Positions 6,996 to 60,750 are shown, counted from the stretch's first letter. The stretch is 64,000 bases of DNA from a virus (IMGVR_UViG_3300032334_001937:48020-112019); one strand, 5' to 3'. Notes: generated by a model not told the origin, from the letters alone. Translations and numbers: made by a program.

Positions 6996-7501
6996 TAGAT
7001 CTCCGTAAACTCAATATTTATATCTACATAATCTGATAAAGATGTTCTCTTTGATAAAGTTTTTGCAAATGTTGTGATAAAAGCACTGTATGTTCTATAT
7101 CCAGTTGCATCAGTTATTGTTGCTTCTGTCTGTGCAGTCTTAAAGTTATGCCCTGATTCATTTGGGACTGAACCAGCAGCAGGATCTGAAGCAAGCTTTG
7201 ACTCAACAACCTTTAAATATATCGGCACACCAGCATTGGCATTATAAAATGATTCCATCCAGGCAGCACCGTAGTTACCATCAGCTGTTTCTGATGATCT
7301 TGTTGGCAAGAATGTCCAGGCTGTTGATATTCTATGCTTTTTAGCAATAACATATTTTCTCATAGTACCGTTAGCCATACGTGTTGTTTGCTCAATTAAA
7401 TCTACATCTATTTGTATTGGTTGTCTATTATGGTCAGTAAGCTTATACCAGGTTGACCCATTAAGGGAAACCTGTATACCCGCTTGAATTTTATATGCCA
7501 T
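6995..7501 (-). CDS. Distal tail (Dit)-like protein
   Basis: Directly follows the tape measure; RMANGTMRKYVIAKK motif. Confidence 0.6.
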   Translation of the reverse strand: MAYKIQAGIQVSLNGSTWYKLTDHNRQPIQIDVDLIEQTTRMANGTMRKYVIAKKHRISTAWTFLPTRSSETADGNYGAAWMESFYNANAGVPIYLKVVESKLASDPAAGSVPNESGHNFKTAQTEATITDATGYRTYSAFITTFAKTLSKRTSLSDYVDINIEFTEI

Positions 7502-10500
7502 TACATCATCACCTTATTTGTTTTGTTATTTTGTCTTTGTACCCTATCTAATCTTACCATAATCTCATCTGCAATTTCTTTCTTATTGAGGTCTGTTCCA
7601 TTAATAATAAAGTGGTTTGTCATTCCTCCATCATTATAAGTTTTATTTTGATCTGCTGGAATAATACGTTCACCCTTGTGAACCATTGCAAGAGTATCAG
7701 CAGGTACATAATCTGTTCCAACATCATATGAAGGAATATTAAATTTAACCATTCCACCTTTAGCAAATCCAAATTTTGATTTTGCTGCATCAATTATTTT
7801 TCCAAAATTGGGTCCAGAGTAACCTATTGTTCCTTTTGAAGTTATTTCTCCTCCGCCCTGAATAATTGTATTAAATTTTTCTGGATTAAATTCAGGATAA
7901 ACAGTTTTATATTGATCTGGCAAGAAAAGCTCTGCTCTTCTATTTTTAGCCATATTTGTAGCGTTTGTATTTGGTGCTAATGGTTCATATGTTCCAAATC
8001 CTATTGGCATAAATTTTATACCCTTTGCAAATTTAGAAAGATATGATGCTGTTGCTTTTGCTCTATTTAATGAAAGCAAGTCATTATCTACTCCACCACG
8101 TGAATCTGCATGTCCTTGAACAACTATAGACTTTATGTTATTATCAATTAATTGAGAAGCTAGTTTTTGAAGTTCTAGCCTTTGTTTTTTATTTAAATCA
8201 TATGAATTAGTACTAAAGTTAGATCTTATTGGCGGAACTTTAATTTTAATTATTTCTTTATGCGCTTCTTGCCAGGCAGCTGCTGGACCCATCATTGTTC
8301 CGCCTTGATAGGTAGGTTTTACTTCACCTTGGAAATTTTTGGAATAATTAGTGACTTGTCCACCTCTTGCAAACTTAGGTTTATTAATATTTTGGAATGC
8401 ATTTGGTTGATTCCATCTTGGTCCAGCTGTTCCAAAATGAGGTATATGTGGTGAAGGCAATGTTCTTTTTGCTTCAAATACATACTCATCTAATAACTTA
8501 GAAGCACTTGGTCCAACCCACTGTTGACTTGCTCCTTCTCCAATAAAATGACCACCTTCTGCTGGTATTTTAATTGCTAAAGGATTAATTGCTTTTAAAA
8601 CAAATTCTGTATAAGCAGCAACATACTGTTCTTTAGCTGTTGCATCTTTGAAGTATCCACCAAGACCAAGGTCCATTAAGTTTTTTATTCCACGGACATC
8701 TTTGCCTAATATAACTTTTGCTATAGCACCAGCCTGTCCACCTCCTGTACCTCCTTGTGTTGCTATGACTTTAGCCCAGTCTAAATTGTCAGTAAATGAT
8801 TTATGCATATCTGGTATCCAGGATTGACCTACATTTAACCCCTTATCAAATTCTTTAAATGGAGCTGCTTCTGGTGAATCATATCTTGGTTCTGGTTTTC
8901 CAGATGCCTTAATTAAATCTACTGCATTTTCTTTCCATCTTGAGGTAAAATGTGACCAAGGAGCATCTTGGGTCATAGAGTTATATCCGAATTTATCCAT
9001 CCAAGCTTTTCCATTTTGCAAAGCCTTATTTGGAACTGTTTTATGTCCTACAATATCAGCCATGTCCTTAAGGCTAAGACCTCTATAGACAACTTGATCT
9101 TCTCCCATTGGTTTTCTAGTTAATAATGAATTAATTACTCCCCAATCATCTTTTTGAGCATACATTGGTTTTTGAGTATATAAATCAAGTGCATTAATTC
9201 CACCAGGTGGGGTGTCTGTTTTTCTTGATAATTTTAATAGCTTTAGAGCATCAGCTATTGTTGTTTTTGAATTTTCTATCATAGATGGAGCATCTTCTGG
9301 TTTTGCCCAGGTGTGGTCCTTAAAGAATTTACCACTTTCAAGATCTTTTATTTTGGTTCTATGATCTGCTATCATTTGCTGATATTTTTTAATTGATGAA
9401 ACTGTATCTTCAGAAAGCTTTGATGTTTTAACGGCTTGTGCTTCTGCAAATGCTTTATTTTGCTGTATAACTCTTTGCATTACATAACTATTACCCATTG
9501 ATGGACGATACTGAGGAAGCTTAGGAACAAAGTTATCATCCATAGCAGCATGGACAGTAACTTTAGGAACAATGGCTGATTTTGTACCCATTCCTAATTT
9601 ACCTGCAAGTCCTACAGCAGGCAATACTCCAAGCACATCTGCAGCAACGCCTAAGCCTTTATGTCCAAATATTTCAGGGCTTGTATTATTTTTTAAATTA
9701 AATGCTGATGTATAGCCAGATAGACCTTGTGCAGCTAGTAACGCAATTCTATCTTTTTCTGTTTGAGAAACTGCTGACTTATAAGAAGAAACTCTTGGGT
9801 CAATTTTTGATGCACCCATACCCATCATTCCAGATAGGTATGAGGAAAACATATTTACTGGGTTAAATCTACTAAAGAAGTTTCCGTTTTTCTTTCCAAC
9901 TGGTCCACCTGTAGCAAACTTCTTTGCATTTAGTTGATCAAAGAAACCTACGCCATATTTATCAACAGCACTTGCATTAACAACATATTCTTTATTAGAT
10001 AGCATTGCTGGAATAGAATCAGATGTTGTACTTCCTGGTCCAGAAATAAAACCGCCATCTGCTTTTTTAGTTGTATTTCTATTGACTGGCTTTCCCTTTA
10101 CACTTAATGTTTGAGGATTCCATTGCTGAATCACGCCAGCACCGTCTACAGCATACTGCTTTCCATTCCATTCAAATACATAAACAGAGTCACCAGTACT
10201 TGTTCTTGTTACTCCACTTCGTTGCTGCAATGCCTTATCAGCTGCAGCGCCAACAGTCTTACCGTCTATAGCCCGTGTAGGTGTCATAGATCCAGCACCA
10301 GACACAACTACTACTGGAAGAGGATTACTTTTATCAAAATTAAACATTCTTGATATGCGATCAAGTGCACCCTTAATGTCTATTGTTGGGGTTGCAACTG
10401 GAGCTGGTCCAGCAGATGCAATGATGTTATCTTTTTTATCTTTATCTGCCTGTAGTTTATCAACTTCATCTTGCTTTGCAGCAATTTGCTTTTCTAGAGC

Positions 10501-13500
10501 TGTTAGTGCATTTTGATTATTATAGTCTACTGTGTTATTAGCTTGTTGTTGTCTTAGCTGTTCTGCTAAAACATAATTTCCATGGATCTTTGCATCTAAA
10601 ATTTCTGCATCAAGGCTTGCCTGTTTTTGCAAGTAATCTTGCTGATTCTTTAACTCTGCTGTTGCATCTTGCTGAGCCTGCAATTTTTTCTGAAGAACTT
10701 TAAGCTCTGCCTTTGCAATTTCTAAAGCACTCTTGCTATTTGCCTTTTCTGCTGCCTTTAGATTAGCAACCTTTGCTGCATAGTCTGCTCTGTCTTTTGC
10801 ATTTTGTTTTTGTATGTCAGCATTTGTTTTTTCAAGGTCTTTTTTAACTGCATCTAAAATCTGCTTTTGTCTTGCTTCTTCAGTTTGACCTGGAGTCATA
10901 GGAACACTTTGTGCTGCCTTCAAGAATATCTGAGCCTCAGCAAAGCTTGCACCCAATGCTCTAAGTTTTGTTAGCTGTGCACCAAGGGCTATGTCTGATT
11001 TATTTGCTGCAATAATTAAATACTGATATGCCTGAGCTGTTCCGCCAAGAGCCTTAGATAATGCGTTGGCCATGCGGATTGCATCTTCATAAGATGTTTT
11101 TGAATCTAGAATTCTGCTTGCAACTAATAGCGCTGCATCCGCTACTCTCTTTTGCTGCTTTGTCAAACCATCATATGCAACATCAAGGTTTGATAATGGT
11201 CTAGCAGCATTTCTTAATTTAGATATCCATGTACCAGTTGCAGTAGTTGAATTCTTTGTGCTTGTTGTAACAGAATCTATTGCCTTCTTTAAGTACTCAG
11301 TCTTTCCAGCATATGTAAGAAGAGTTGTAATTAAGTCTTTTACCTTTGATGGATCCATTCCATTTGCTACCTGTGCAGCAACAAACTGTCTTACTGTTCC
11401 AACAACACTGCTCTCACTGCTCATTCCCTTTAGGCTGTCAGCTACAAGCTTTAGAGGATTATCACTCTTTAACTTATTAATTGCATTAACACGTTTTTGA
11501 AGTTCACTTAATTCTTTATTTGTATCTTTGACTGATGTTGCAAATACGTGAATCTTTGCAGTCTGATCAAGCATTGTTCCACCGAACATGCTAATTACAT
11601 CAGCACTTGCTGTATAAGTTGCTTTTACAGTTGCTTCATGCTTTCTATGCATTTCCACTAATGATGTTATTCCAGCAGTAACAAGTCCTATTGCAGCTCC
11701 AGCTGCAGCTCCCCATACACCAAACATTGCTCCCATAGCTGCCATATTTGCTGTTGATTGAGCTAATGCTTTTCCTGTAAACTCTGGCAAAGCACTAAGA
11801 GCCATGCTTCCAACCATAAGTCCAGCACCAGCTGCCATGCCTCTGCCACTTAAACCAAATCTAGATTTTCCAGCATCTTTTGTTTTGTTTCCATTTTCTT
11901 TTCCAGCAGCTAATTTTTCTTGTTCAGTTAATGCAGCAACAATTGGAAGTGACATTGCATTCTCTGGCATGCTTGGTCCAATTTGAGCTGGCCCCTGTGT
12001 TCTTGTTGCTACTCTTCTTTTCTTTAGTGCCTCTTTAGCTCCAACATCTACTGACTGTACAGCTTCTACACCAATCTTTTTACCTGCTGCTGTTACAATC
12101 TTTTCATCAGCAATCATGCCTTCTGCAAGACCACCATCAATATACTTTCCAGTACGTTTTGATGCTTGAGAGTTTGAAGCAGTTTCTGCACCCTGTGCAA
12201 CTCCCTTAGTAGCTCTTCTTCCAGTTTCTATTGCAACCTTTTCTGCAAATTTTATTAAACGATCATGTGCATTTGCAATAATTGCTTTAGTTCTTACTTC
12301 AATTTCTTTTACACTTGCTGTAATTCCTGGCATGATGTGTGCTGCTTGAGCTCCAGTATATTCTTTTAGTGAATTTTCCTGTGCTCTTTTTCTTGCACGA
12401 TTTAAAGCTATTCGTTGTGAAAGATATGACTTGCGCTCTTCTGGCATGTCTTTTGGTGGTAATGTTCCTAGCTCAGGCAAAACATCTGGCAAAGTGTTTG
12501 GAACATTTTTCATTTGAAATTCGGGCTTAGTACCAGTTTCACTTGATTTACTTGGTCTTTCACCTTTTCTAAAAGCAAAAGGATTTAATCTTACTGCAAG
12601 AGCTTGTGCTTTTTCTCTAAAATCAATATAAGATTTTCCTAAGCTTGTTCTTGGAACAGAAGATCCAGTACCGCTTCCAACCATTGCAACAGTTCTTATA
12701 TCATCTATTGCGCTATTAATTGCTGCAGCTGCTTGTTTACCGCCAATATTAATTGTTTCAGCTTCTTTTCTCATTGCTGGAACAACAATATTTTCAAGGT
12801 CTAAATCTGTTACTAAAGTTTTTCCTGATTTTTCTAATGCACTTATAGAAGACTCTATAAGTTTTTTGCCTGCAACTTCAAAATCTTTATGTAACGTTGG
12901 ATCCTCAACACTTACTCCCATTGAGTCTGCCATTACTGCAAGAAGTGGAGATGCTGCTGCACCACCAGACTGACGAAGTGATGCAATAACATCCTGCATG
13001 CTTGCTCCAGTTGAACTTCCTAGCTGTTGGTTAATCCAATCTTGTAAATATATGGTTGCATTTCTATATGCTTTAATCTCAATGTCTTCAAGTGGTCCTG
13101 TTGTCCCGCCCTTTAGTTTTGTTCCACGACCTGTTGGGAATCCAGGTAGGTTATCTGCAACTAAAGAATTAATTAGATCTGGATGTTTTGAAACAACTGC
13201 TGCTGGGATGATTGCTTCACCATTAGAAATTCTTGCAATGATAGAATCTGAAGTTCCAGTTCCTGGGCCAGTCACAACTCCTGGTGTTCCAGTTGCAAAC
13301 TTCTTGAGGGCTGGAGCCTTCATCATTCCAGGATTGCTCATAGCAAAAGTTTTTGCTGCAACTATTGCTCTTTCATATGCCACTCTTAATTGATTGACTG
13401 CCCCTGCTTCTACAGTAAATTGCTGAGTAAGGGTTGCATGTGCCTGCTCAAGTGAGTGTGCTGCTGCTGCAGCATCAAGCTGTTCGCTTGTTAAATATTG

Positions 13501-15291
13501 TGTTTGTTCTCCAAGATTTTGGCTTTGGCCAGTAAGTCTTTGATATCCTGTTCTTAATGTAAGGAAAAGTTTCATTATGTTTGCAACACCGTTTGCAAGC
13601 AAACCAAATGTCATCAAAAGAATTGGACCAAGACCACCAATAACTCCAGCGGTAATTGCTACAAACTTTTTAGTGCCATCAGATAAGTTATTAAACTTAT
13701 CAAGTACTTTAGTAACAAAATCAATAACTGGAGTAAATGCTTTCATGAACACTTCTCCTACTGGAGCAAGAGATGCTTTAAGCTTTGCAACTGCTGCTTG
13801 AAATTTAATTAATGCAGATGCTGATGTTACACCTAATTCTTTTTCGGTAAGGCTTGCAAGATTCCCTGCTGACTGACCTGCTAAATCAAGAACTCTTGAT
13901 GCCTGATTTCCTGACTGAATAACATTCTTCATCAATGTTGAAATACGTGCAAACTGGAATTTACCAAACATTGTTTCAATTGCTCTTGCTCTAGCAAGTG
14001 GATCTAATCTATCAAGTTCTTTAGCAAACTCAACAACTGTTGCCTTAAGATTACCCTTGTTTTTATTTACAATTCCATTTATATTAATTCCCATACTTGC
14101 AAGCATTTCATTTGCTTTTTTGCTTGGGTTAATTAAAGAGGCTAAGCCAGACTTTAGTGCGTTAGCACCTTCTGATGCATTAACTCCTCCTTCTTTCATT
14201 GCAGTAAGGAAGAAAGCTAAGTCTTTTACATCTCCACCAAGTGACTGAATTACTGGAGCTACCTTTGGAATAGCTGTTGTAATATCATCAAGAGATGTTA
14301 CAGTTTGGTTTTCTACTGCGTTAAGGAAGTCAATTGTTGTAGCAAGCTCTGTTGAAGAAATCTTAAAAGCATTTTGAAGAGATATAGTTGTTTCAAGTGC
14401 TTGCTGTTGTTCAATTTGTCCAAGGATAGCAAGCTTAGTTGCTGCATCTGTTTGTGCAATTAAGTCTGCATTCTTAAAACCTGCTGCAGCTGCTTGAGAA
14501 GCAAGCTCTACTGTCTTAGATACTTCAACGCCATACTTTGTATACCCGTCAGCAAGTGCTCTGATATTCTTTAATGCAGCTTCTGTTTCTACTTGATTAG
14601 TACCAAGATCGCCATATACTTTTCTAAATCTAATTACTTCTGTTTCTAATGTCTTAAAAGACTTGGCTGCTGCCTGACCAAATGCAGCAAGTGGTAGAGT
14701 AAAACCAACCATAAGCTGACGACCAGCCCACTGAGTATTTTTACCAAAGTTAAGAAGACTTGTTGATCCTTGTTTTATTAACTGATTAAAGATTGCTTGC
14801 TTTTGAGCTGCTATCTGAGTTTGTGTACTCAGATTATTCATGTCAAGAGTTAATGGTCTGATAGCAATTGCCTTCATTGCTCCAGTTGCATCACGACCCA
14901 TCTTGATGTATTGGGTCTGTAATGTCTTTACACGTTCTTCGGCTACCTTGCCAATTGTGTCAAATTCACTCTTAAATGCTTTACCAAATGTTTTTGTTGC
15001 TGCCCCAGCATATCTGAAGTACTCACGCATTGAGAGCTTATTGCCCTCAAGCGATGTAGTAAATGATTCTGCTGTTGTTTTTACTGTGCGGAGTTCTGCA
15101 GAGAAAGCACCAATAGCATTTACACTATTGACAAAATTTCTCTGCAGATCCCTCTGAGCAAGTGCTGCTGCTTCACTACTTTTAGCAACAGATGAGTGAA
15201 ACTGAGATATCTGACGTTGTAGGGCCTTTAGTTGGTCCAATGCTGCAGACGTATCAATATTTACGCCAATATTAGCATTTACATCAGACAT
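7501..15291 (-). CDS. Tape measure protein with C-terminal ADP-ribosyltransferase-like and OmpA-like domains
   Basis: 2596 aa, Ala-rich and helical, with a TP901-type core (GVNASEGANALKSGL). Two GPGxxTSDSIxAxxSNxE motifs. OmpA motif GHADSRG...LSLNRA...NRRAE. ART-like motif VYRG...SFT...KEQY. Confidence 0.92.
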   Translation of the reverse strand: MSDVNANIGVNIDTSAALDQLKALQRQISQFHSSVAKSSEAAALAQRDLQRNFVNSVNAIGAFSAELRTVKTTAESFTTSLEGNKLSMREYFRYAGAATKTFGKAFKSEFDTIGKVAEERVKTLQTQYIKMGRDATGAMKAIAIRPLTLDMNNLSTQTQIAAQKQAIFNQLIKQGSTSLLNFGKNTQWAGRQLMVGFTLPLAAFGQAAAKSFKTLETEVIRFRKVYGDLGTNQVETEAALKNIRALADGYTKYGVEVSKTVELASQAAAAGFKNADLIAQTDAATKLAILGQIEQQQALETTISLQNAFKISSTELATTIDFLNAVENQTVTSLDDITTAIPKVAPVIQSLGGDVKDLAFFLTAMKEGGVNASEGANALKSGLASLINPSKKANEMLASMGININGIVNKNKGNLKATVVEFAKELDRLDPLARARAIETMFGKFQFARISTLMKNVIQSGNQASRVLDLAGQSAGNLASLTEKELGVTSASALIKFQAAVAKLKASLAPVGEVFMKAFTPVIDFVTKVLDKFNNLSDGTKKFVAITAGVIGGLGPILLMTFGLLANGVANIMKLFLTLRTGYQRLTGQSQNLGEQTQYLTSEQLDAAAAAHSLEQAHATLTQQFTVEAGAVNQLRVAYERAIVAAKTFAMSNPGMMKAPALKKFATGTPGVVTGPGTGTSDSIIARISNGEAIIPAAVVSKHPDLINSLVADNLPGFPTGRGTKLKGGTTGPLEDIEIKAYRNATIYLQDWINQQLGSSTGASMQDVIASLRQSGGAAASPLLAVMADSMGVSVEDPTLHKDFEVAGKKLIESSISALEKSGKTLVTDLDLENIVVPAMRKEAETINIGGKQAAAAINSAIDDIRTVAMVGSGTGSSVPRTSLGKSYIDFREKAQALAVRLNPFAFRKGERPSKSSETGTKPEFQMKNVPNTLPDVLPELGTLPPKDMPEERKSYLSQRIALNRARKRAQENSLKEYTGAQAAHIMPGITASVKEIEVRTKAIIANAHDRLIKFAEKVAIETGRRATKGVAQGAETASNSQASKRTGKYIDGGLAEGMIADEKIVTAAGKKIGVEAVQSVDVGAKEALKKRRVATRTQGPAQIGPSMPENAMSLPIVAALTEQEKLAAGKENGNKTKDAGKSRFGLSGRGMAAGAGLMVGSMALSALPEFTGKALAQSTANMAAMGAMFGVWGAAAGAAIGLVTAGITSLVEMHRKHEATVKATYTASADVISMFGGTMLDQTAKIHVFATSVKDTNKELSELQKRVNAINKLKSDNPLKLVADSLKGMSSESSVVGTVRQFVAAQVANGMDPSKVKDLITTLLTYAGKTEYLKKAIDSVTTSTKNSTTATGTWISKLRNAARPLSNLDVAYDGLTKQQKRVADAALLVASRILDSKTSYEDAIRMANALSKALGGTAQAYQYLIIAANKSDIALGAQLTKLRALGASFAEAQIFLKAAQSVPMTPGQTEEARQKQILDAVKKDLEKTNADIQKQNAKDRADYAAKVANLKAAEKANSKSALEIAKAELKVLQKKLQAQQDATAELKNQQDYLQKQASLDAEILDAKIHGNYVLAEQLRQQQANNTVDYNNQNALTALEKQIAAKQDEVDKLQADKDKKDNIIASAGPAPVATPTIDIKGALDRISRMFNFDKSNPLPVVVVSGAGSMTPTRAIDGKTVGAAADKALQQRSGVTRTSTGDSVYVFEWNGKQYAVDGAGVIQQWNPQTLSVKGKPVNRNTTKKADGGFISGPGSTTSDSIPAMLSNKEYVVNASAVDKYGVGFFDQLNAKKFATGGPVGKKNGNFFSRFNPVNMFSSYLSGMMGMGASKIDPRVSSYKSAVSQTEKDRIALLAAQGLSGYTSAFNLKNNTSPEIFGHKGLGVAADVLGVLPAVGLAGKLGMGTKSAIVPKVTVHAAMDDNFVPKLPQYRPSMGNSYVMQRVIQQNKAFAEAQAVKTSKLSEDTVSSIKKYQQMIADHRTKIKDLESGKFFKDHTWAKPEDAPSMIENSKTTIADALKLLKLSRKTDTPPGGINALDLYTQKPMYAQKDDWGVINSLLTRKPMGEDQVVYRGLSLKDMADIVGHKTVPNKALQNGKAWMDKFGYNSMTQDAPWSHFTSRWKENAVDLIKASGKPEPRYDSPEAAPFKEFDKGLNVGQSWIPDMHKSFTDNLDWAKVIATQGGTGGGQAGAIAKVILGKDVRGIKNLMDLGLGGYFKDATAKEQYVAAYTEFVLKAINPLAIKIPAEGGHFIGEGASQQWVGPSASKLLDEYVFEAKRTLPSPHIPHFGTAGPRWNQPNAFQNINKPKFARGGQVTNYSKNFQGEVKPTYQGGTMMGPAAAWQEAHKEIIKIKVPPIRSNFSTNSYDLNKKQRLELQKLASQLIDNNIKSIVVQGHADSRGGVDNDLLSLNRAKATASYLSKFAKGIKFMPIGFGTYEPLAPNTNATNMAKNRRAELFLPDQYKTVYPEFNPEKFNTIIQGGGEITSKGTIGYSGPNFGKIIDAAKSKFGFAKGGMVKFNIPSYDVGTDYVPADTLAMVHKGERIIPADQNKTYNDGGMTNHFIINGTDLNKKEIADEIMVRLDRVQRQNNKTNKVMM

Positions 15292-15313: not shown

Positions 15314-15634
15314 TTATTCAGCTGGTAAAACGTTGACCAGTGAACCAAGCTCAATGCCTGATGCTGCTTCAACAATTTTATAAACAGTTGGAAGGTCAAG
15401 AATTTCTTCCAATGTTGCCAAATCTTTTGCCAGTTCTGGCTTGTACTGCTCCATAGCAATTTGAACACACTCAATCAAAATATTCATTGATTTTTCGTTG
15501 TTGTCTGCGACAGTAGCTATACCCTCAAACTTCTTCATAAATGGGCGGAGCAAAGAAATTTTTAGAGGCTTAACCTCAATCTTTGTACCGTCCATAAGAA
15601 TAAGTTCATTACCCTCATGTACTTTCGTTGCCAT
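15314..15634 (-). CDS. Tail assembly chaperone, short form
   Basis: 106 aa between tail tube and tape measure; paralogous to the N-terminal half of the upstream ORF. Confidence 0.7.
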   Translation of the reverse strand: MATKVHEGNELILMDGTKIEVKPLKISLLRPFMKKFEGIATVADNNEKSMNILIECVQIAMEQYKPELAKDLATLEEILDLPTVYKIVEAASGIELGSLVNVLPAE

Positions 15635-15665: not shown

Positions 15666-16370
15666 TTATAGCATAGCGGAGGGGTCTCTAGCGTCTTCAT
15701 AATCAAGACCAAGACCAATACCAAACCCTGCTTTCTGTGCATTTACTCCTTGTAAAGCAAGAACATCATTACTATCAGAAGTTGCCCCACCACTAAATAC
15801 TCTAGCCTTCATATCTTCCCATTGCTTTTGACCTTGCTCTTGTTCACCTTCAAGATCAACCCCTTGCATTGCTGCTAAAAATTTCTTTTCTTCATAGTCT
15901 AATTCTCTTTTACTTGCTAGGGTTGCCAATAACTCTGGCATAGATAAAGATAATTCTAGTTCATGATAATCTTTCCATATACCCAGTAAAAATACTTCTG
16001 ACTCTAATTTAGCCAAGTCTAAGTCTGCCCATGTCATTCCGCTGCTAGTTGCTTGACTCTTTACGGTTTCTTGAGAATCTTCATTTATCTTAATTCCCGC
16101 AGCAACATCAAGAACCAAATATACATTTGGCAAATCAAGATTATCTTCAACATCATCTTTTGTTTTTGATATTTCAGGAAAGTACTGCTTCATTGATATT
16201 CTAACGCATTCAACTAAAAGGTCTATTGACTCATCATCAGTTTCTGCAGTTTGCACTTTTTGAAAAGCGTCCATGAACTCACGAAGGTACTTAATTTTTA
16301 AAGGCATTGCCTCTATTTCAGTTCCATCAATAAGTTTAATTATTTTATTATTGTAAACAGTTGTAGCCAT
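15666..16370 (-). CDS. Tail assembly chaperone, long form
   Basis: Follows the tail tube gene. N-terminal half matches 15314..15634; C-terminal LSMPELLATL region resembles a chaperone T-domain. Start moved to MATTV, behind a TGCTAAAAT promoter. Confidence 0.7.
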   Translation of the reverse strand: MATTVYNNKIIKLIDGTEIEAMPLKIKYLREFMDAFQKVQTAETDDESIDLLVECVRISMKQYFPEISKTKDDVEDNLDLPNVYLVLDVAAGIKINEDSQETVKSQATSSGMTWADLDLAKLESEVFLLGIWKDYHELELSLSMPELLATLASKRELDYEEKKFLAAMQGVDLEGEQEQGQKQWEDMKARVFSGGATSDSNDVLALQGVNAQKAGFGIGLGLDYEDARDPSAML

Positions 16371-16400
16371 ATACTTCAATTTTAGCATATAGAAACAACA

Positions 16401-21645: not shown

Positions 21646-23037
21646 TTAGTTATATAGGTCGGAGAATTTGAGGAAACGTCCGCCCCATAGGGATTTTTGA
21701 ACTGGACTTTCATCCAATTCCTGCACGATCTCGCCTAGATCGCCAGACTTGCGGAAAGCTGTGTCCTTTTCTACGGAATCAACTCGCTTTCCAATTTCAT
21801 TAAAAGTACCCTTGATCTGATTTACATCAGTTGTTGTGGCATCAAGAGACTTCTTCATATTAGCAACTTCATCACTAAGTGACTTAATTGTTGCTGTTAA
21901 ATCGCTAAAGGCATTAGTAACAGATTCTTTGATATCAGAAATTGCAACTGCAATTACTTCGTCTGACTTAGGAGCCATTGGCTTCTTGTCTTCTGCTTCT
22001 TCATCCCCTGGCTTTTCAGTCGCAGCATCTGCAGCAGTTTCTTCATCAGATGGCTTTGCAGCTTTTTCTGTTGAATCTTCTTCAGTTGCATCAGACTTCT
22101 TGTCGCACTTGCATGCATCCATAGCCTTTCCACAATCTGGACATGTTGAAGCCTTTGTGACTTCCTGGGTATTAGCATCTGCCTCTGGAGCGACCTCTGA
22201 CTTTGCTACTTCTACTGCTGCTTCTGTTTCAATAACTTCTGCAACTGCATCTGTGTTTTCTGTCATGGATTGTACCTCCTTGTTAATCTTAGAAGTATTA
22301 ATGCCTTTAGCACTATCAACTAAGAATTTTATCATGTTTGTTTTTTCTGAGTCATTCTTTTCTACAAAACCAATGTTTTTCATTTCGTTACCACTTACTG
22401 GGCTAACGTATGTTTCTTCATCAGAAGTTAGAACAATTCCTGTTTCTTCATCATAGAAAACATTTTCTACAACTACATCTGCAAGGTCTCCCTTAATTGT
22501 GTCTACTCCGTCAACCTTTTCAACTGACATAATGCTTGCGAACTGATTTGCTGGGGAGTCTACAAGACTCAACTCAACAAGATCATAGTCCTTAATAACT
22601 CTAATTGTTTTATCTAGTTCTTCGTTATATGCGTCATCCCACTTATTCATTCTACCGCCGATAGAAAAACCAGTGTATGTTCCATCAAGAACTTTTTCCC
22701 ATGCATCTGCTGCACCTTTTGAAATGTATGTAGAAACATAAATGCCTTTGTAAAACTTCTTTGACTCTGGATCAAAATACTTTTCTTCTTTAAAAGAAAT
22801 CATCTTGCCAACTGCTGAAGGTTGATGCATTTCACGAATATTTCCACGGAACTTTGCAAAAGCGCTCATTGATGCTTCTGTTGTAACAATGTCATATTGC
22901 TTGTCAACATTGTCAAGGGAGGCAAAGCCAGACACAATTCTTTTCTCAATATCTACTTTTCCAAAGGGCATTGATAAGCGAACATTGTCGCCGTCAGTGG
23001 TCCAAAAAGCCTTATTTATGTTCATATCGTAATCCAT
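21646..23037 (-). CDS. Prohead protease fused to an acidic/coiled-coil scaffold region
   Basis: IREMH, TGFSIGG, ELSLVDSPAN motifs; acidic linker containing CPDC..CKC; coiled-coil C-terminus. Confidence 0.9.
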   Translation of the reverse strand: MDYDMNINKAFWTTDGDNVRLSMPFGKVDIEKRIVSGFASLDNVDKQYDIVTTEASMSAFAKFRGNIREMHQPSAVGKMISFKEEKYFDPESKKFYKGIYVSTYISKGAADAWEKVLDGTYTGFSIGGRMNKWDDAYNEELDKTIRVIKDYDLVELSLVDSPANQFASIMSVEKVDGVDTIKGDLADVVVENVFYDEETGIVLTSDEETYVSPVSGNEMKNIGFVEKNDSEKTNMIKFLVDSAKGINTSKINKEVQSMTENTDAVAEVIETEAAVEVAKSEVAPEADANTQEVTKASTCPDCGKAMDACKCDKKSDATEEDSTEKAAKPSDEETAADAATEKPGDEEAEDKKPMAPKSDEVIAVAISDIKESVTNAFSDLTATIKSLSDEVANMKKSLDATTTDVNQIKGTFNEIGKRVDSVEKDTAFRKSGDLGEIVQELDESPVQKSLWGGRFLKFSDLYN

Positions 23038-25142: not shown

Positions 25143-27176
25143 TTAGTAAAACTTAATTTCGCAGGCATCTGTTGAGCAATATGCCTCACCTGCTGCTTCA
25201 AGGTTTTCTACTCCATCATAAATAGCGGACCAGTCAATTTTACCAATCTTGCCAACATATGAGTTATATTCTTCACGTGTGATTTCTGTATATGGCTGCT
25301 GAGGATAAGTTTTATTTCCCATTGGAAGAAAAGAAACTGCCTTTAGCTGACCCTCATACATATTAAGTGCTGGAGCGACAAACTTCTTTTCTTCTTCCTT
25401 GTCAAATGAGAGTGTTACAGAAACACCATTATCTGACCAGTACTTCTGAGCGGTTGCTGCCAAACCAATCTTTTCAAATAGGCTAACCTGCTTCTCAGAA
25501 CGTTTATGTCCTGATGCTACTGGGAAATATACTACTTGAGTATTTGCTGATACTAGATCTGGTTCAACTTTATATCCCGCTGCTTTAAACAAATGAAGCA
25601 TTGGATCAGTATCTCCAAAACGAATAGCACGAAGATAGAATTCTCCACCAGGTCCCCAGTGAACTCCAGGTGTAGCACCAGAAAGAAGCGATACAGATCC
25701 TGATGGCTTAACTGTTGTCACACGAACTGATTCACGAACACAAAGCCATTCTGAATACTGATGATCATATTTACGAATTGTTGAGTAACCCTCATCCATC
25801 CATTCACGAGTTGTTGGCAAACCATGTTCGTCAGCAAAAGCAGCAATTCCTGTAAGGGATGTACCAATGCGACGATTGCGTTGCATAATTCCGTTTGTAA
25901 CTGGCCAATGTGTTGGCATAAGAGTAACAGTCTTTCCATACAAATATGCAAACTTAAGAGTCTTCAAAAAGTCTTCTTTTGACTCATGGCGATTAAGGTG
26001 AACCTCTACAAGGGTACAAAGTTCATACGATTCAAGTGGCTGCTCTGCACATGGATTAAATCCCATAATACGAGCATCTTTATAATCTGGAGCATCTGCA
26101 AGGCGACCATAGTCACGTGCAACCCCTAGCCAGATAAAACCTGGCTCTCCGTTGTCTGCAATTAAATCTACATAATCTTCATACTTAGTTCCAACTTCAG
26201 CAGCAATAGAGTTATTACTCATCCATGCCCAACCTGGTTTTTCTGGATCATAGGAGTTTCTTTCTGGGAAGACTTCTGGATTTTTAAGATTAATAAAGCC
26301 ATCATCTTCTGGTGTACCCAAAGCAAGAGTTGCAGAACGACGAACATTTCCAGAAACAACACATGTTCCAATAAGGTTTACGATATCTACAATTGCACGG
26401 CTATCAAGCATATCTCCTGCTCTAGAGCCCACAACATTGCGAATGCGTGTATGGAGATCAATAAGTGGCGCTGGACCGCTTGCAACGCCTCCAAAGCCCT
26501 TAATAGGGGCTCCTAGAGGGCGGATAAGGTCATAGTTAAACTCTTGAATTGGTTGGTTCTGGCGTAAAAATGAATTAATCAAAAGGCGTACAGATTCTAC
26601 CCATCCTTCACGGGTATCTGGAATTTCATAGGTAGATACTGGTTCATTAGGAGCATAAATAGACATTTGCTTATCTTGTCCAAGAGTATCAAATCCTACT
26701 CCAATACCCAGCATTAATGCATCCATAACCCAAGCAAATAATGCACCTGGATCATTGCGGTCAATGTCACGAGTAGAAACCATTGCACAGTTTTGGAGGG
26801 AAGCAGAGTTACGCTTTTCCATAGTCATAGGTGTACCGAATGCCCAAAGACCACGACCTGGTGGTGTCCACTTCAATTCAAACATTCTCTGGAAAGCTTC
26901 CTGAGCAGACTTCTGTGCCTTGTTATCATTCCATGGAAGACGATTGTCTTTAGCATGGTTCTTCTGAACTGAATACATACCCTCAATTACACGACGGCAA
27001 ACTTCATGCCAGCGTTCCTTAGTTCCATCTTCCTTAACACGAGAATATGTACGAATAAATGTAATCTCTCCAAGTGAGTTAGATCCTGCATCTTGAAATC
27101 CAAAAGGACTTGGAGCGTTGTTATATTTATTTACAAATTCATCGGAAAGACGAAAAGAGAATACTGTATCTGACAT
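25143..27176 (-). CDS. nrdJ: Class II (adenosylcobalamin-dependent) ribonucleotide reductase
   Basis: PPGRGLW, NPCAEQ, CTLVE, TTVKPSGS motifs and C-terminal CSTDAC; no small subunit nearby. Confidence 0.93.
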   Translation of the reverse strand: MSDTVFSFRLSDEFVNKYNNAPSPFGFQDAGSNSLGEITFIRTYSRVKEDGTKERWHEVCRRVIEGMYSVQKNHAKDNRLPWNDNKAQKSAQEAFQRMFELKWTPPGRGLWAFGTPMTMEKRNSASLQNCAMVSTRDIDRNDPGALFAWVMDALMLGIGVGFDTLGQDKQMSIYAPNEPVSTYEIPDTREGWVESVRLLINSFLRQNQPIQEFNYDLIRPLGAPIKGFGGVASGPAPLIDLHTRIRNVVGSRAGDMLDSRAIVDIVNLIGTCVVSGNVRRSATLALGTPEDDGFINLKNPEVFPERNSYDPEKPGWAWMSNNSIAAEVGTKYEDYVDLIADNGEPGFIWLGVARDYGRLADAPDYKDARIMGFNPCAEQPLESYELCTLVEVHLNRHESKEDFLKTLKFAYLYGKTVTLMPTHWPVTNGIMQRNRRIGTSLTGIAAFADEHGLPTTREWMDEGYSTIRKYDHQYSEWLCVRESVRVTTVKPSGSVSLLSGATPGVHWGPGGEFYLRAIRFGDTDPMLHLFKAAGYKVEPDLVSANTQVVYFPVASGHKRSEKQVSLFEKIGLAATAQKYWSDNGVSVTLSFDKEEEKKFVAPALNMYEGQLKAVSFLPMGNKTYPQQPYTEITREEYNSYVGKIGKIDWSAIYDGVENLEAAGEAYCSTDACEIKFY

Positions 27177-27332: not shown

Positions 27333-27962
27333 TTATGAGATCCAGTGGTTTGGAACCATATACTTTAGTCCACTCTTAACAAGGTGTGCTGTATGATGGT
27401 AAGGTGGTGATGGCGGAAATACAATAATGCTTCCTGCTTTTGGTTTTACAGCAAATGTATAATTTCCAGTTCTTTCTGCTTCAGCAAAATCTGGGGTTGG
27501 TCCTGCTTGCTGCAAAATTCCATCAGGAGAAGAAATAGTAAATGATATTTCTCCGCCCTCATAATCATCATTAAGGTACATGACAAAAGAAACCTTTAGT
27601 CTTTCATCTCCTTCTTGCTGATCAAAGTGAGCGCCCATAAATGTACCAGGTTCATATCTTTTTATTGGGTACATAGGAAATAGCTTTGGCTCATCTGTAA
27701 TTCCTTGTGCAGCTGCATAGTCTTTTGCTACAACATCAAAGGCATCTCTAATTGTATTATAGATATAGTTATTTTTTTCATCATCATTCTCTGGAGTATA
27801 GATGGTCTTGTCTGTTCCATACACATAGTGCTGTCCACTACAGGCCATCCATTCACCCCAGGGATCTTCATTATCTTTGTCAATTGCCTCAACAAGTTTT
27901 TGAGGGTCTTGAATTACGTTTGTGTAATAGTAGACCTTTTCTTCAAGTATTTCTCTTTCCAT
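27333..27962 (-). CDS. 2OG-Fe(II) oxygenase, prolyl 4-hydroxylase-like
   Basis: HFD...YLNDDYEGGE...HHTA...KY. Confidence 0.88.
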   Translation of the reverse strand: MEREILEEKVYYYTNVIQDPQKLVEAIDKDNEDPWGEWMACSGQHYVYGTDKTIYTPENDDEKNNYIYNTIRDAFDVVAKDYAAAQGITDEPKLFPMYPIKRYEPGTFMGAHFDQQEGDERLKVSFVMYLNDDYEGGEISFTISSPDGILQQAGPTPDFAEAERTGNYTFAVKPKAGSIIVFPPSPPYHHTAHLVKSGLKYMVPNHWIS

Positions 27963-27973
27963 TTTATATCTCC

Positions 27974-28633
27974 TTAGTATCTATTCTTTTCGTAGTGATC
28001 TTTTTCTCTAATGAAACCTACTATGACATATCTTATTGGTCCATCACCAACAAATCTTACTCCGTGTTCATATTTTTCAGTTCCTGGAAAAACCAATAAA
28101 GAACCTGGTTTTGGCTTTAGTTCTATGTCAAGATGTTCAAAGAAAAGTTCTCCATCTACATAGTCATCATTTAAATAAAGAATTGTTGCATAGCGAATTG
28201 AGGGGTCTGTGTGCTGATCTGTATGTGATTTTAATTGAACCTTTTCCTGCATTCTTTGCATAGTTCCAAATCCACCAAGCTCTAAGCTGTCATCTAATTG
28301 TTTAACTAAAGAGTTTACTCTAGTATGAATTGTTCCAGTTACTTCATATTCAGTAATCTGCAAATTTTTATCATTCCAGTTTTTAGTAATTTCAAACTTA
28401 CCTTCTGCAACTAAGTTATCAACATCATCTCTTCCAAACTTTTCAAGACAAAATCTTTTTAAGTTTTTTACATACTCTATTGACCAGTCTTCTTCTGGTC
28501 TTGTATTAATAATATCCCATAAAGATGCAAGTTCTTCTTTAGACAAAAAATCCTCTACAAGCAAAATTTCATCGTCAATATCTGTACATTTAAAGTTATT
28601 TTTTTCAAATGACTCTTTTAAAAAATTAGACAT
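27974..28633 (-). CDS. 2OG-Fe(II) oxygenase, prolyl 4-hydroxylase-like
   Basis: HTD...YLNDDYVDGE...HGV...RY. Confidence 0.88.
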   Translation of the reverse strand: MSNFLKESFEKNNFKCTDIDDEILLVEDFLSKEELASLWDIINTRPEEDWSIEYVKNLKRFCLEKFGRDDVDNLVAEGKFEITKNWNDKNLQITEYEVTGTIHTRVNSLVKQLDDSLELGGFGTMQRMQEKVQLKSHTDQHTDPSIRYATILYLNDDYVDGELFFEHLDIELKPKPGSLLVFPGTEKYEHGVRFVGDGPIRYVIVGFIREKDHYEKNRY

Positions 28634-36679: not shown

Positions 36680-39493
36680 TTATGCTGTCAAGTCGCCGTA
36701 AACAACCCATGTATTTGTAGCTCTCTTGAAAAGAGTTGCAGATGACCATTGAGTTCTTAGCTTTAGACCTGGTGTTGCGTTTACTGTAACTCCAGTATCT
36801 CCTGCGATTGTTACCTGACCTGTTGAAGTCTGAAGGATATCAATTGATGTTCCGACTGGATAAGCAACTGCTGAGTTTGTTGGAATTGTGATAGTTGTTC
36901 CTGATGAAGATGCTACTTCAACAAGGCTATCTCTTTCTGTAAGTGATGAAAGTGTGTATGATGCTGTCTTCTGTACGATTGGTGTCCGTGAAGGAACGCC
37001 TTCCTTTGTCTGTGTACCGTCTGTAAATGCCACTCCAGATGCTGCAACTGTTACAAGACCTGTAAATGTTGGAGCATTGATTGGTGACTTAGCAGCAAGG
37101 TCAGATGTTAAACCTGAAATCTTTGACTGTGCAATTGCTGCTGATGCGTTTACATCTGCATCTACGATTGCTCCATCAGCGATCATTGCTGAAGTAACTC
37201 CACCAGTTGCAATATCAAGTGTTCCTGGTGTAGATTCTGTTAGACCAGAACCTGCTGTTACAGCCTTAGCAGCGTTGTATGCTACGTAGGTAATATTGCT
37301 TGAACCAATTGTGATTGCTGATGTGTTAGAACATACGTAACCGTATCCTGCACCAGCTGTACCTTCAAGTACGAGACAGAAGTCTCCGCCTGCAAGCTCA
37401 CCTGATGGAGTATTATCTGCATCAGCTGCACGAGACCATGTTGAAGCATTTACAACGTAGATACCGTTTGTCTTCTGGTCTGTCTGGTCCTTAACAAGAA
37501 CACGGTCACCAGCAATTACTGATACTCCGTCAATTGTCTGTGTTCCGCTTAGTGTAATATTTGCTGTTGTAGCAACACGAACTGGCTGGTGGAAGTTAAT
37601 TCCAGAAACTACGTTATCAACGTATGCCTTTGTTGCTGCATGTAGGTCTGCTGATGGAGCACCTGCAAGAGTAAGATCTCCTGTCATTGTTCCGCCAGAC
37701 TTTGACAACTTAGCATCAAGCTGTGTTTGAATTGCTGATGTTACACCGTCAACATAGCCAATTTCAGTAGCTGAAACATTTCCAATTGAAGTAGTACTTG
37801 GAAGAACTACAGTTCCTGTAAATGTTGGGTCTGCCTTTGGAGCCTTAAGATCAAGTGCTGTCTGTGTAGCAGTTGAAACTGGCTTATTTGTATCTGATGT
37901 GTTGTCAGCATTTCCAAGACCAACATCTGACTTTGTAATACCAGTTGGTGTATTAATAACTGGTGATGTTAAAGTCTTGTTTGTAAGAGTTTCTGTCTTA
38001 GTTGCAGTTGACTTAGCATCAAGCTGTGTCTGGATTGCAGAAGTAACACCATCAAGGTATCCAATTTCTGTGTCAGAAACACCTGAAACTACTGCTTGCT
38101 TTCCATTAAGCTGTGTTTGGATAGAAGATGTAACTCCATCAACATATCCAAGCTCTGTTGCAGATACTGTTGAAGATACTGCTAGCTTTGTCCAGTCAAT
38201 CGCAGCTGATGCATTAATGTCAGCGTTTACGATTGTGTCATTAGCAATCATTGTGCTTGTGACTGTACCTGTATCTGTTGTTGCAACAAGGTTAGCTGTA
38301 TTTGAAATTCCGTGAACAGCAGTTGTATCTGAGTTATGTGTGCCAATTGCATCATCAGCATAAGTCTTTGTTGCTACTGTTGAGTCAATATCAATTGTAA
38401 GTGTGTTTGATGCGTCATCGTAGTTATGCTGTAGTCCAGTACCTGAATTTAATGCACCAGCAATTGAGTCAACTGCAAGTTCACCAACATACTCTGAGTC
38501 AATGGCAAAACGATCATTGTCTGCATCCCAAGAAAGTCCTGTACCAACAAGGCCAGGGTAATCATTTGATACTCCACTAACAGCACTTGATACATAATCT
38601 TGTGTTGCAAGTGTTCCGCTTGCATCTGGAAGTGTAACTGTTCTATCTGCAGTTGGATCTATTACTGAAAGTGTAGTTTCAAAACCATCTGCTGTTGCAC
38701 CTTCAAAAATTACCTGGTTATTTACGTTAATAGCTGTGCTGTTTACTGTAGTTGTAGTACCGTTTACAGTTAGGTTACCAGAAAGTGTTAAATCTGCTGC
38801 ATTAACAGTACCTGTAAATGTTGGGTTTGCCTTTGGTGCTTTAAGATCAAGAGCTGTTTGTGCAGCTGATGAAACTGGCTTATTTGCGTCAGATGTATTA
38901 TCTACGTTGCCAAGACCTACTGAAGACTTTGTAAGTGCTGCAACTGCAGTTGATACTGCTCCGTCAGCATAAGTCTTTGTAGCAAGTGCTGAAGTATCAG
39001 CGATTCCATGAATATTAGTTGTATCTGCTTCGTGGTTTGAAAGAGCAGTATTTGAAGCCTTTGCATCAAGAGCAGTTTGTGTTGCTGTTGAGACTGGCTT
39101 ATTAGCATCTGAAGTATTGTCTACATTGCCAAGTCCAACGTGTGACTTTGTAACACCAGAAACTGTTCCTGTAAATGTTGGGTTAGCCTTTGGAGCCTTA
39201 AGGTCAAGGCTTGTTGAAAGTGTTGTAAAGAATGCTGGATCATCATTGATTGCTGCTGCAAGTTCATTAAGAGTATTTAATGCTCCTGGTGCTCCATCAA
39301 TAAGGTCATTAATTCCTGCAAGTGCACTTTCAGCATCTGTGAAGTAAGTAAGGTCAGCCCAGTGATTTGTGCCATCACCAATCTTAAATTTATTTGTGTC
39401 TGATTCCCAGCCGATTTCTCCTGCGTTGAGAATTGGGTTAGCGCCTGACCACTGTGATGCGGTTCCTCTGCGCTGTTGCATTCTAGTTGCCAT
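36680..39493 (-). CDS. Fibre protein with an Mtd/hyaluronidase-like N-terminal domain and internal repeats
   Basis: QRRGTASQW...GEIGWESDTNKFKIGDG. Three copies of VGLGNxDNTSDxNKPVS, three of KAPKAxPTFTG, three of ExGYxDGVTSxIQTQL. Confidence 0.8.
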   Translation of the reverse strand: MATRMQQRRGTASQWSGANPILNAGEIGWESDTNKFKIGDGTNHWADLTYFTDAESALAGINDLIDGAPGALNTLNELAAAINDDPAFFTTLSTSLDLKAPKANPTFTGTVSGVTKSHVGLGNVDNTSDANKPVSTATQTALDAKASNTALSNHEADTTNIHGIADTSALATKTYADGAVSTAVAALTKSSVGLGNVDNTSDANKPVSSAAQTALDLKAPKANPTFTGTVNAADLTLSGNLTVNGTTTTVNSTAINVNNQVIFEGATADGFETTLSVIDPTADRTVTLPDASGTLATQDYVSSAVSGVSNDYPGLVGTGLSWDADNDRFAIDSEYVGELAVDSIAGALNSGTGLQHNYDDASNTLTIDIDSTVATKTYADDAIGTHNSDTTAVHGISNTANLVATTDTGTVTSTMIANDTIVNADINASAAIDWTKLAVSSTVSATELGYVDGVTSSIQTQLNGKQAVVSGVSDTEIGYLDGVTSAIQTQLDAKSTATKTETLTNKTLTSPVINTPTGITKSDVGLGNADNTSDTNKPVSTATQTALDLKAPKADPTFTGTVVLPSTTSIGNVSATEIGYVDGVTSAIQTQLDAKLSKSGGTMTGDLTLAGAPSADLHAATKAYVDNVVSGINFHQPVRVATTANITLSGTQTIDGVSVIAGDRVLVKDQTDQKTNGIYVVNASTWSRAADADNTPSGELAGGDFCLVLEGTAGAGYGYVCSNTSAITIGSSNITYVAYNAAKAVTAGSGLTESTPGTLDIATGGVTSAMIADGAIVDADVNASAAIAQSKISGLTSDLAAKSPINAPTFTGLVTVAASGVAFTDGTQTKEGVPSRTPIVQKTASYTLSSLTERDSLVEVASSSGTTITIPTNSAVAYPVGTSIDILQTSTGQVTIAGDTGVTVNATPGLKLRTQWSSATLFKRATNTWVVYGDLTA

Positions 39494-56205: not shown

Positions 56206-56279
56206 GGTCTGTTAGCTCAGTTGGTTAGAGCGCTACCCTGTCACGGTAGAGGTCGTGGGTTCAAGTCCCATACAGATCG
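56206..56279 (+). tRNA. tRNA-Asp (GTC)
   Basis: Cloverleaf: GGTCTGT/ACAGATC acceptor, CTACC-CTGTCAC-GGTAG anticodon arm, GTTCAAGTC T-loop; CCA not encoded. Confidence 0.93.
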
Positions 56280-56822
56280 CAAGCGTAAATGGGGCCCCGA
56301 GAAAATTTGGACATTTGGGACATTTAACTAATTGTATTAATATAAAAACCTTATTAAGAAAGACTTGACTTTTTCCCTGAAATTTGCAATAATTAATACA
56401 TGACCACAACATACAAACCATATACCATACACGAACTCGTAGAGGAAATCTATGAGGACAACTTCTCTCACTTTGATTTCATGGAAAACATGAACGGTGG
56501 GGATTGCGATTGTAATCTACATAATGCCATGAACCTTATTGTCAAGTATTGGGGAGAGTAATGCTAGGATATACCATAGAAGATATTAACAAAATACAAG
56601 AGTGTCTTAGTTTACTTAGCAAGGCTGATGGCATACCACAAGACCTTTGTGATGGATTAGAAATGGCTAACTCATTCTTTGATGGACTATGGGCAGAAGG
56701 GTACTTTGACTAATGCATAAACATCATTGGTTATCTTCAGATGTACCAGGGGTATATACCTGTACATTTAATTGTGGGTTTGGATATTGGAATCCTAAGA
56801 CAGAACAAATAGAGGAACAATA

Positions 56823-60483: not shown

Positions 60484-60750
60484 TAGCAATGCTCTATATC
60501 CATTTTGTACATTTGCTGTTGGCAGCATCAGTAGTTGGTATTTTTGCAGGGATCAAAGAGTATTTTTGGCCAGGGGACAAATAAGGTATACTTGGGCTAT
60601 GGGCATACTAGATAACCTGGAAGCATCTCTTGATCTGCTATGGGAAGACTCTGACTTAGAGCTTCAAACCCAAAACCCACATATTACTGACTAGGGTTAT
60701 ATCTTATACTAGGGATTACGAAGCATCATTTAAATCCCCCGAAATTTTTG

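Follow-up and report, generated by a model that had tools for sequence, protein, structure and literature searches.

Why would a phage tape measure protein, of a kind usually regarded as rulers and conduits, contain unrelated globular domains set off by copies of a short peptide? The question is raised by a 64,000-nucleotide stretch of viral DNA (IMGVR_UViG_3300032334_001937:48020-112019; "the window", with positions counted from its first letter), which encodes on its minus strand a tape measure protein of 2,596 residues (Table 1). An earlier note on this DNA had picked out seven peptides resembling F-A-x-G-G in this protein, and proposed that they mark processing or recombination boundaries of exchangeable effectors in a polymorphic delivery system. 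We find this interpretation partly supported: the exchange boundaries and the identities of the cargo domains hold, and cleavage and delivery are argued here by analogy with known phages.

A repeated junction module in a giant tape measure protein

All seven peptides do occur, in place, within the single 2,596-residue protein, and they prove not to be free-standing. Instead, they belong to a module of about 55 residues, of which they form both edges, and of which hidden Markov model (HMM) searches detect three copies; self-BLAST of the protein returned no repeats. As boundaries, most of the seven peptides hold as module edges. The exception is YDVGT, which takes the place of the canonical GPGTGT within module 3 and bounds nothing; the trailing edge of that module, YNDGG, had been overlooked. 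The sequence FA.GG appears three times in the protein where 0.08 copies would be expected; for the looser F[AP].G[GTR] the counts are five observed and 0.23 expected. None of 5,000 composition-preserving shuffles matched either observed count. A fifth peptide of the [K]-A-x-G-G type, KALGG at residue 1413 (about 11041-11055), falls within the helical ruler segment but outside any module and may be a chance match, as 0.6-0.75 such matches are expected per shuffle.

Across 337 unique copies from relatives, the first part of the module reads K-[KY]-[FMY]-A-x-G-G, then G-P-G-T-G-T-S-D-[ST]-[VI]-P-A-M-L-[ST]-x-G-E-x-V, and the second part contains Y-G, N and a trailing [YF]-[AP]-x-G. The Asp and Glu of the module are 100% conserved in these copies, and the motif glycines 98-99%. 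We found no Pfam model, NCBIfam name or PHROG functional name for it. Within the whole 112-kb genome, both the module, as searched with its HMM, and repeated copies of the motif are confined to the tape measure protein. The same restriction appears in cultured phages: a 63-residue copy of the module retrieved 763 cultured-phage records, essentially all within annotated tape measure genes, from phages infecting Gordonia, Mycobacterium, Pseudomonas, Burkholderia, Vibrio and other hosts. Among solved structures (PDB 8rk3, 8zdo), the matches are the tape measure proteins of Pseudomonas phage JBD30 (residues 1017-1056) and mycobacteriophage Douge (two copies, residues 964-1010 and 1412-1463), and it is module 2 that matches JBD30 gp46 and Douge gp16.

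Besides the three full copies, the protein contains an orphan junction, KFARGGQVTNY, in which only the first 11 or so residues of a terminal-type module are present. In relatives, the ADP-ribosyltransferase (ART) domain is followed by a terminal module whose leading edge aligns with this peptide, and 26-27 of 28 aligned rows have its A, G and G. Orphan copies keep A-x-G-G strictly, which speaks for recognition of the peptide by something, whether a protease or a structural partner.

By sequence, the regions that enclose the modules mark this as a tape measure protein, from a siphovirus-like phage not yet in culture. It exceeds the curated cut-offs of both PF10145 (92.8 bits against 33.2, residues 252-443) and TIGR01760 (107.9 bits against 28.8), which places it with the TP901-type tape measure proteins, and nine PHROG tape-measure families match it. 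Homologues in cultured phages are distant, with the best sharing 30% identity over the first 575 residues, and the related contigs derive from environmental metagenomes. The N-terminal core includes a hydrophobic hairpin at the hydropathy peak (residues 541-577). At the other end, a terminal-region profile shows that the last 50 or so residues are conserved at the protein end in 120 of 121 relatives. As the last 33-42 residues of the T5, JBD30 and Douge tape measure proteins form a trimer in the baseplate hub (T5: PMC10038345), we infer by analogy that the C-terminal tail is a tail-tip plug.

Table 1. Features of the tape measure gene and its product (positions within the window; peptides are listed by their first residue).
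Feature	Residues	Position	Strand	Basis or content
Tape measure protein gene	1-2596	7501..15291	(-)	one open reading frame, 2,596 aa (P0001)
N-terminal TP901-type core	1-660	13312..15291	(-)	55-83% identity in all 120 best homologues
Junction module 1	663-722	13126..13305	(-)	HMM E 6e-23; KFATGT, core GPGTGTSDSI..SNGEAII, GFPTGR
KFATGT	664	13302-13285	(-)	leading edge, module 1
GFPTGR	717	13143-13126	(-)	trailing edge, module 1
Variable ruler segment	723-1740	10072..13125	(-)	AlphaFold2 model, hydropathy
Junction module 2	1741-1797	9901..10071	(-)	HMM E 2e-25; KADGG, core GPGSTTSDSIPAMLSNKEYVV, KFATGG
KADGG	1743	10065-10051	(-)	leading edge, module 2
KFATGG	1791	9921-9904	(-)	trailing edge, module 2
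Segment A	1798-1934	9490..9900	(-)	conserved GNFFSRFNP block; hydrophobic Gly-rich stretch, residues 1878-1900
Cargo domain B	1957-2277	8461..9423	(-)	helical lead-in and predicted ART fold (residues ~2025-2278); AlphaFold2
Orphan junction KFARGGQVTNY	2306-2316	8344..8376	(-)	first ~11 residues of terminal-type module, then OmpA cassette
KFARGG	2306	8376-8359	(-)	orphan leading edge
OmpA-like peptidoglycan-binding domain	~2346-2457	7921..8256	(-)	PF00691
Junction module 3 (terminal type)	2508-2556	7624..7770	(-)	HMM E 7e-9; GFAKGG, core ..YVPADTLAMVHKGERIIPA, YNDGG
GFAKGG	2508	7770-7753	(-)	leading edge, module 3
YDVGT	2522	7728-7714	(-)	inside module 3
YNDGG	2552		(-)	trailing edge, module 3
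C-terminal tail	2557-2596	7504..7623	(-)	kept at extreme end of 120/121 relatives

Cassettes differ among relatives at or next to module edges

The best 120 homologues, which range from 1,673 to 4,340 residues in length, share residues 1 to ~720 with our protein at 55-83% identity. In the relatives closest in this N-terminal part (78-83% identity), similarity is lost at residues 718-724, and in some more distant relatives (46-55%) the alignment continues to residue ~1,615 or ~1,800. In each of the six closest viral contigs, the alignment covers module 1, breaks off at its trailing P-G-F-x-x-G and gives way to unrelated sequence. Homology clustering of 186 proteins groups the 150 residues that precede module 1 into a single cluster, and the 150 residues that follow it into 16. 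When these 16 states are mapped onto a FastTree phylogeny of the N-terminal part, at least 55 changes of state are needed, compared with a theoretical minimum of 15 and with 105-109 for shuffled labels. Exchange beyond module 1 is therefore frequent, with many independent events.

Further junctions were identified downstream. Segment A is directly preceded by xAxGG in every relative examined, with or without a full module core upstream, and in about ten relatives the ART domain is followed by a short linker and then by the leading xAxGG of the next module. In a sister protein with 89% identity (P0003), a different domain of 219 residues replaces the C-terminal part of the ART together with the OmpA-like domain, and the two proteins rejoin exactly at GFAKGG. 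This replacement domain (P0003 residues ~1953-2171), which ends directly at GFAKGG, contains the strings FKGVRS, YFSSNP and SMEFPQLL and might, on sequence, represent a further ART-like domain of smaller size. When distal segments are grouped by single linkage, 91 of 96 fall into one component, a result too coarse to be informative.

Overall, our sequence comparisons show that relatives differ by entire cassettes ending at or beside module edges, and support an exchange of segments at the motif. We found no DNA recombination hot spot between the module copies, which are about 60% identical, with a best repeat of 25 nucleotides at 76-80%. Since the copies lack long DNA identity, the junction pattern is better explained by selection for joints that fall in a tolerated element than by such a hot spot.

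The cargo includes a predicted ADP-ribosyltransferase and an OmpA-like domain

We modeled the cargo region with AlphaFold2, using an alignment of 28 rows. Cargo domain B was predicted with a per-residue confidence (pLDDT) mostly above 90 and is flanked on either side by low-confidence linkers. The C-terminal 250 residues of this domain resemble ART catalytic domains. Structure comparisons with Foldseek show similarity to Certhrax, CDTa and C3 (E about 1e-4, probability 1.0), and VIA-align superposes the domain on Vip2, ExoT, iota Ia and C3 with Z-scores of 12-13.3 and a root-mean-square deviation of 2.4-2.8 Å over ~145 residues; all 50 of the 50 entries listed by VIA-align are ARTs. Viral fold matches in BFVD are phage Mod/Alt-type ADP-ribosylases and fusions of minor capsid proteins to ARTs. 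In the model, R2070, S2165-F-T2167 and E2221 lie on the expected strands, and these residues are conserved among aligned relatives (R2070 in 22 of 23, S2165 and T2167 in 23 of 25, E2221 in 26 of 26). The domain thus shows both the catalytic fold and the Arg/Ser-x-Thr/Glu residues of the R-S-E clade (C3/iota/Vip2 type). The "ART-like" label of the earlier note is in this way borne out by fold, and not by sequence profile. On the predicted structure, domain B is an ART fold with an intact catalytic triad that is not a member of a named ART family, and the enzyme is probably active, of the R-S-E type.

Cargo containing this ART is rare. Among 1.84 billion proteins we identified 31 cluster representatives, which with few exceptions form part of long tape measure proteins and lie near the C-terminus, and a search of viral contigs with the cargo region found no relative.

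The second cargo domain is assigned with a Pfam score above the gathering threshold (PF00691, 44.5 bits against a cut-off of 27.2, residues 2359-2451), and OmpA, Pal and YfiB structures in the PDB match it with E-values of 2e-6 to 1e-3, confirming the OmpA-like domain reported earlier. NCBIfam OmpA-type models score under their family cut-offs, and the signatures GH.D..G, LS..RA and NRR.E are visible on inspection of the sequence. AlphaFold2 confidence in this domain is low because the alignment is shallow. In relatives, OmpA (PF00691) and LysM (PF01476) are the only other Pfam families recorded. The term "effectors" fits the ART, but not the OmpA-like domain or the LysM domains of relatives, which look like envelope anchors rather than toxins.

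Two further segments lie upstream of the ART. Segment A, for which the AlphaFold2 pLDDT is about 30, carries a Gly-rich stretch that resembles, by analogy only, the glycine-zipper segment of Tde1. In this type VI secretion system effector the segment is required for membrane translocation, and glycine zippers also occur near the C-termini of Burkholderia tape measure proteins. The ruler segment contains a small folded domain (residues ~745-865), a Gly-zipper hydrophobic stretch (~1183-1214) and a helix of ~155 residues (~1471-1626). A Pfam search of residues 722-1741 at E 10 yielded nothing credible, and Foldseek with the model of residues 721-1741 gave no hit at E <= 0.001, only helical-repeat noise. 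The earlier description of cargo lying "after the helical core" is thus partly apt, in that helices also make up most of the ~1,020-residue stretch from module 1 to module 2.

A proposed mechanism and the question of cleavage

We propose that the protein is a modular ejection protein built of swappable cassettes, and put the probability of this reading at roughly 0.55. The conserved N-terminal core and the putative C-terminal tip plug enclose a variable middle of cassettes joined by the ~55-residue module, with module edges reading [F/K/M]-A-x-G-G. The cassettes are the helical ruler segment, the hydrophobic Gly-rich segment together with the predicted R-S-E-type ART, and the OmpA-like peptidoglycan-binding domain. 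On infection, the C-terminal end would exit the tail first, after which the OmpA-like domain would hold the ejected protein at the cell wall. With the putative membrane-active segment in the lead, the ART would reach cytoplasmic NAD+ and modify a host target, like the head-packaged T4 Alt.

To our knowledge, cleavage of a tape measure protein is known only from T5 and lambda. The T5 protein pb2 is cut during tail assembly after R1127, and the 92-residue pb2C stays in the tip, from where it is proposed to exit first and digest peptidoglycan; pb2* is anchored in the opened hub by its new C-terminus (PMC10038345). Checking the sequence, we found that R1127 lies in FVPR|AEGG, and that R-A-x-G-G is kept in seven of seven diverse T5-like phages, down to 37% identity. 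Our protein has peptides of this xAxGG type at residues 665, 1743, 1792, 2307 and 2509. T5 pb2 shares with it an x-A-x-G-G peptide, there the site of the cut, a hydrophobic stretch before the site and, in the proposed mechanism, a distal part that leaves the tail first; it differs in having one site and a cargo of 92 residues, and swappable cassettes are not described for it. By eye, the T5 stretch GEHGTEVVTP resembles HKGERIIPA, which we note as a lead only.

Lambda gpH provides a second comparison. Residues 733-782 follow the module layout, with FATGG, PAGIVHRGEFV and YATGG in order. The match of gpH to the module HMM is weak (5.4 bits), and its best domain outscores 2,000 of 2,000 composition-matched shuffles. 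Just upstream, the Pfam family Tape_meas_lam_C covers residues 627-701. A cut at FATGG would release residues 733-853, a fragment of 12.7 kDa, compared with the reported fragment of ~14 kDa. Lambda gpH therefore shares with our protein both the module layout and a C-terminal piece, there cut off (gpH*/gpHC), and differs in having a single module and no enzyme cargo.

By analogy with T5 pb2, the xAxGG peptide may also be a maturation cleavage site here, such that the cargo would be released as separate polypeptides; we give this suggestion somewhat less than even odds. More doubtful still is the generalization in which xAxGG would be a cleavage site of siphophage tape measure proteins at large, T5 and lambda included, and multi-module proteins would be polyproteins that release an exchangeable, phage-specific set of proteins (in our case an active ART and a cell-wall anchor), injected ahead of the DNA.

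A number of our results count against the modular ejection protein or parts of it. As boundaries of exchangeable segments, the motifs stand at module 1, segment A and GFAKGG. They do not for the left junction of the replacement in the sister protein, which falls at residue ~1981, inside the domain and with no motif there. Breakpoints within 10 residues of a module are enriched 5-fold when every pair is counted, and only about 2-fold once distinct ends of high-scoring segment pairs are counted once; our argument for exchange rests on the junction-specific tests rather than on these breakpoint statistics. Distal cargo beyond module 2 occurs in only 81 of 185 relatives, and where it reaches ~800 residues per chain, as here, three chains of it must fit the tail lumen or hub, presumably unfolded. 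AlphaFold2 confidence in the modules themselves is low. For the ART, the first position of [Q/E]-x-E (residue 2219), the one that determines target specificity in these enzymes, is A, D or Y among relatives and is not conserved, and a Pfam search of residues 1798-2340 gave nothing credible, with no ART model matching even at E 10; we therefore call this domain by fold and triad only. With regard to cleavage, neither the canonical nor the terminal module HMM matches T5 pb2. Homology between pb2 and the module was rejected after hhalign, given an alignment of seven T5-like members, matched 5-6 columns, covering the pentapeptide only, with an E-value of 0.25. In lambda, the ~14-kDa C-terminal fragment is cut from a Gly-rich region, with both the site and the protease unmapped in the literature.

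Alternative explanations

The alternative that survives best, which we consider possible if on the whole unlikely, is that the module has a structural role only, as a hinge or "hook" by which the trimer docks to the baseplate hub or tube wall, and is never cut. The protein would then remain whole, with its enzymes acting while tethered to the trans-envelope conduit, and junctions would cluster at modules only through the survival of recombinants whose joint falls in a shared, tolerant element. This would fit JBD30, whose authors predicted a "hook" at the residues that the module occupies and suggested that, once the protein is cleaved, this hook fixes it in the baseplate. In JBD30 gp46 (L090), FASGG at residue 1019 and HATGG at residue 1081 flank the module, and the cleavage residue speculated on by the authors, 1066, lies between these two peptides and at neither. 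JBD30 gp46 and Douge gp16 resemble our protein in having the canonical module, and differ in that the module is invisible in both maps and no cargo domains are described; cleavage in JBD30 is speculative. Also in favor of a tethered enzyme is gp96 of Thermus phage P23-45, described as a virion RNA polymerase and tape measure protein in one polypeptide that works at the pore, in a report in which we found no terms for processing (Chaban et al. 2024, PMC10770324). The gp96 polymerase is an enzyme with cytoplasmic substrates that enters within the tape measure polypeptide, and so serves equally as a precedent for what we propose for the ART. It differs in being N-terminal, and no repeated junction module, cassette exchange or processing is reported for gp96 (PMC10770324).

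Two of our own results fit an uncut hinge as well: the surroundings of the T5 cut site show no homology past five residues, and the lack of long DNA identity between module copies points to selection at the junctions. On the other hand, orphan xAxGG peptides that lack a module core, such as KFARGG in our protein and LMLHKGG and the like in relatives, match full modules in conservation, which suggests that the pentapeptide has a role of its own, and the same pentapeptide is the mapped cut site of T5, conserved across T5-like phages. Moreover, an ART tethered to a protein that spans the periplasm would have poor access to cytoplasmic substrates.

We regard as very improbable a second alternative, in which the internal modules are functionless relics, former C-terminal ends left behind when recombination with other tape measure genes added new C-terminal sequence. 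In its favor, over half of the relatives carry only two modules, of which the second adjoins the C-terminal tail, and the orphan KFARGG is visibly a truncated module of the terminal type. However, the invariant Asp, Gly-Glu and Asn are retained in the internal copies, which outscore the terminal copy (E-values of 1e-23 to 1e-25 against 1e-9), and module 1 occupies a fixed position in 120 of 121 homologues, the exception (P0122) being truncated at its N-terminus. This conservation and fixed position indicate purifying selection on the internal modules.

Finally, an assembly or annotation artefact that fused separate tape measure, ART and OmpA genes might be suspected in a metagenome-derived record, given that some short database proteins (314-772 residues) comprise the ART and terminal region only, but we give it almost no credence: the frame is unbroken over 7.8 kb, a 99%-identical protein of 2,596 residues is on record from JGI and ENA sources, the family-specific C-terminal tail lies at the very end of the reading frame as in 120 of 121 relatives, and the same cargo is found inside long tape measure proteins in many independent contigs.

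Comparison with other delivery systems

Returning to the modular ejection protein that we favor, known injected ARTs are packaged in the head. T4 Alt and the MuF-ART polyvalent proteins likewise deliver a ready-made ART with the DNA and are variable and multi-domain; they differ in being head-packaged and in being processed by dedicated peptidase domains (Iyer et al. 2017, PMC5512222). The survey of polyvalent proteins in that paper makes no mention of tape measure proteins (PMC5512222). In the tail, mycobacteriophage TM4 is reported to have functional cell-wall motifs embedded in the ruler, as in our protein, which are in that case small and fixed (Piuri & Hatfull 2006, PMC1796659).

Bacterial polymorphic toxins share the combination of a conserved delivery part with variable, recombining toxin domains (Zhang et al. 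2012, PMC3482391). They differ in having C-terminal tips, immunity genes and silent cassette stores. None of these was seen here. The neighbors of the tape measure gene are tail genes, with no immunity gene seen beside it in a simple check, which was not an exhaustive search, and the module HMM revealed no other module copy in the 112-kb genome that could indicate a silent store. The idea of a polymorphic delivery system therefore applies to our protein in its conserved delivery part and variable cargo, and not in these accessory elements.

Several elements of our proposal are already published: motifs embedded in tape measure proteins, a distal muralytic fragment (T5), an N-terminal virion RNA polymerase (P23-45) and injected, head-packaged ARTs. 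Full-text searches of the literature library used here found no published account of a tape-measure-specific junction module that fences exchangeable cassettes, including an ART with an intact triad.

Genome setting

The source genome is a complete virus record of 112,019 bp with direct terminal repeats. Gene order around the tape measure gene is as expected for such a gene, with chaperone-like open reading frames upstream and distal tail genes downstream, the latter encoding proteins of 168 residues and 1,461 residues (a minor tail protein). Directly upstream are two open reading frames of PHROG 10504 (15314-15634 and 15666-16388, both on the minus strand), the longer of which also matches PHROG 10474. 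By sequence, this pair looks like paralogous tail assembly chaperones as in T5, and not like the usual G/GT frameshift pair.

The sole protease recognized in the annotated part of the window is a head maturation protease of 463 residues (21646-23037, minus strand; PHROG 9427, E 3e-113), for which we found no link to tape measure processing. Genes for nucleotide metabolism adjoin the portal and head protease genes, which is an unusual location: a ribonucleotide reductase gene (25143-27176, minus strand) and tandem genes with PHROG matches to a 2-oxoglutarate-Fe(II) oxygenase and a DNA endonuclease (27333-27962 and 27974-28633, both minus strand). Further along, a protein of 937 residues (36680-39493, minus strand) matches 36 PHROG families, among them head decoration, tail fibre and minor tail families, over short repeated stretches, which suggests a mosaic fibre or decoration protein of shared repeats. 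Two tRNA genes, Asp-GTC (56206-56280, plus strand) and Arg-CCG (60750-60821, minus strand), lie in a half of the window that is poor in long open reading frames.

Implications for phage tails

The module, which occurs in lambda, JBD30, mycobacteriophages and hundreds of other cultured phages, is conserved and specific to tape measure proteins, and its edge peptide matches the one mapped cut site; we therefore consider this peptide a testable candidate for the T5/lambda cleavage signal. If our proposal is correct, long phage tails would carry exchangeable, ready-made enzymes into the host, as a tail-borne counterpart of head-packaged ejection proteins. Injected ADP-ribosyltransferases are a class so far known from proteins packaged in the head, and a tail-borne route, here for a probably active member, would bear on host takeover, counter-defence and engineered protein delivery.

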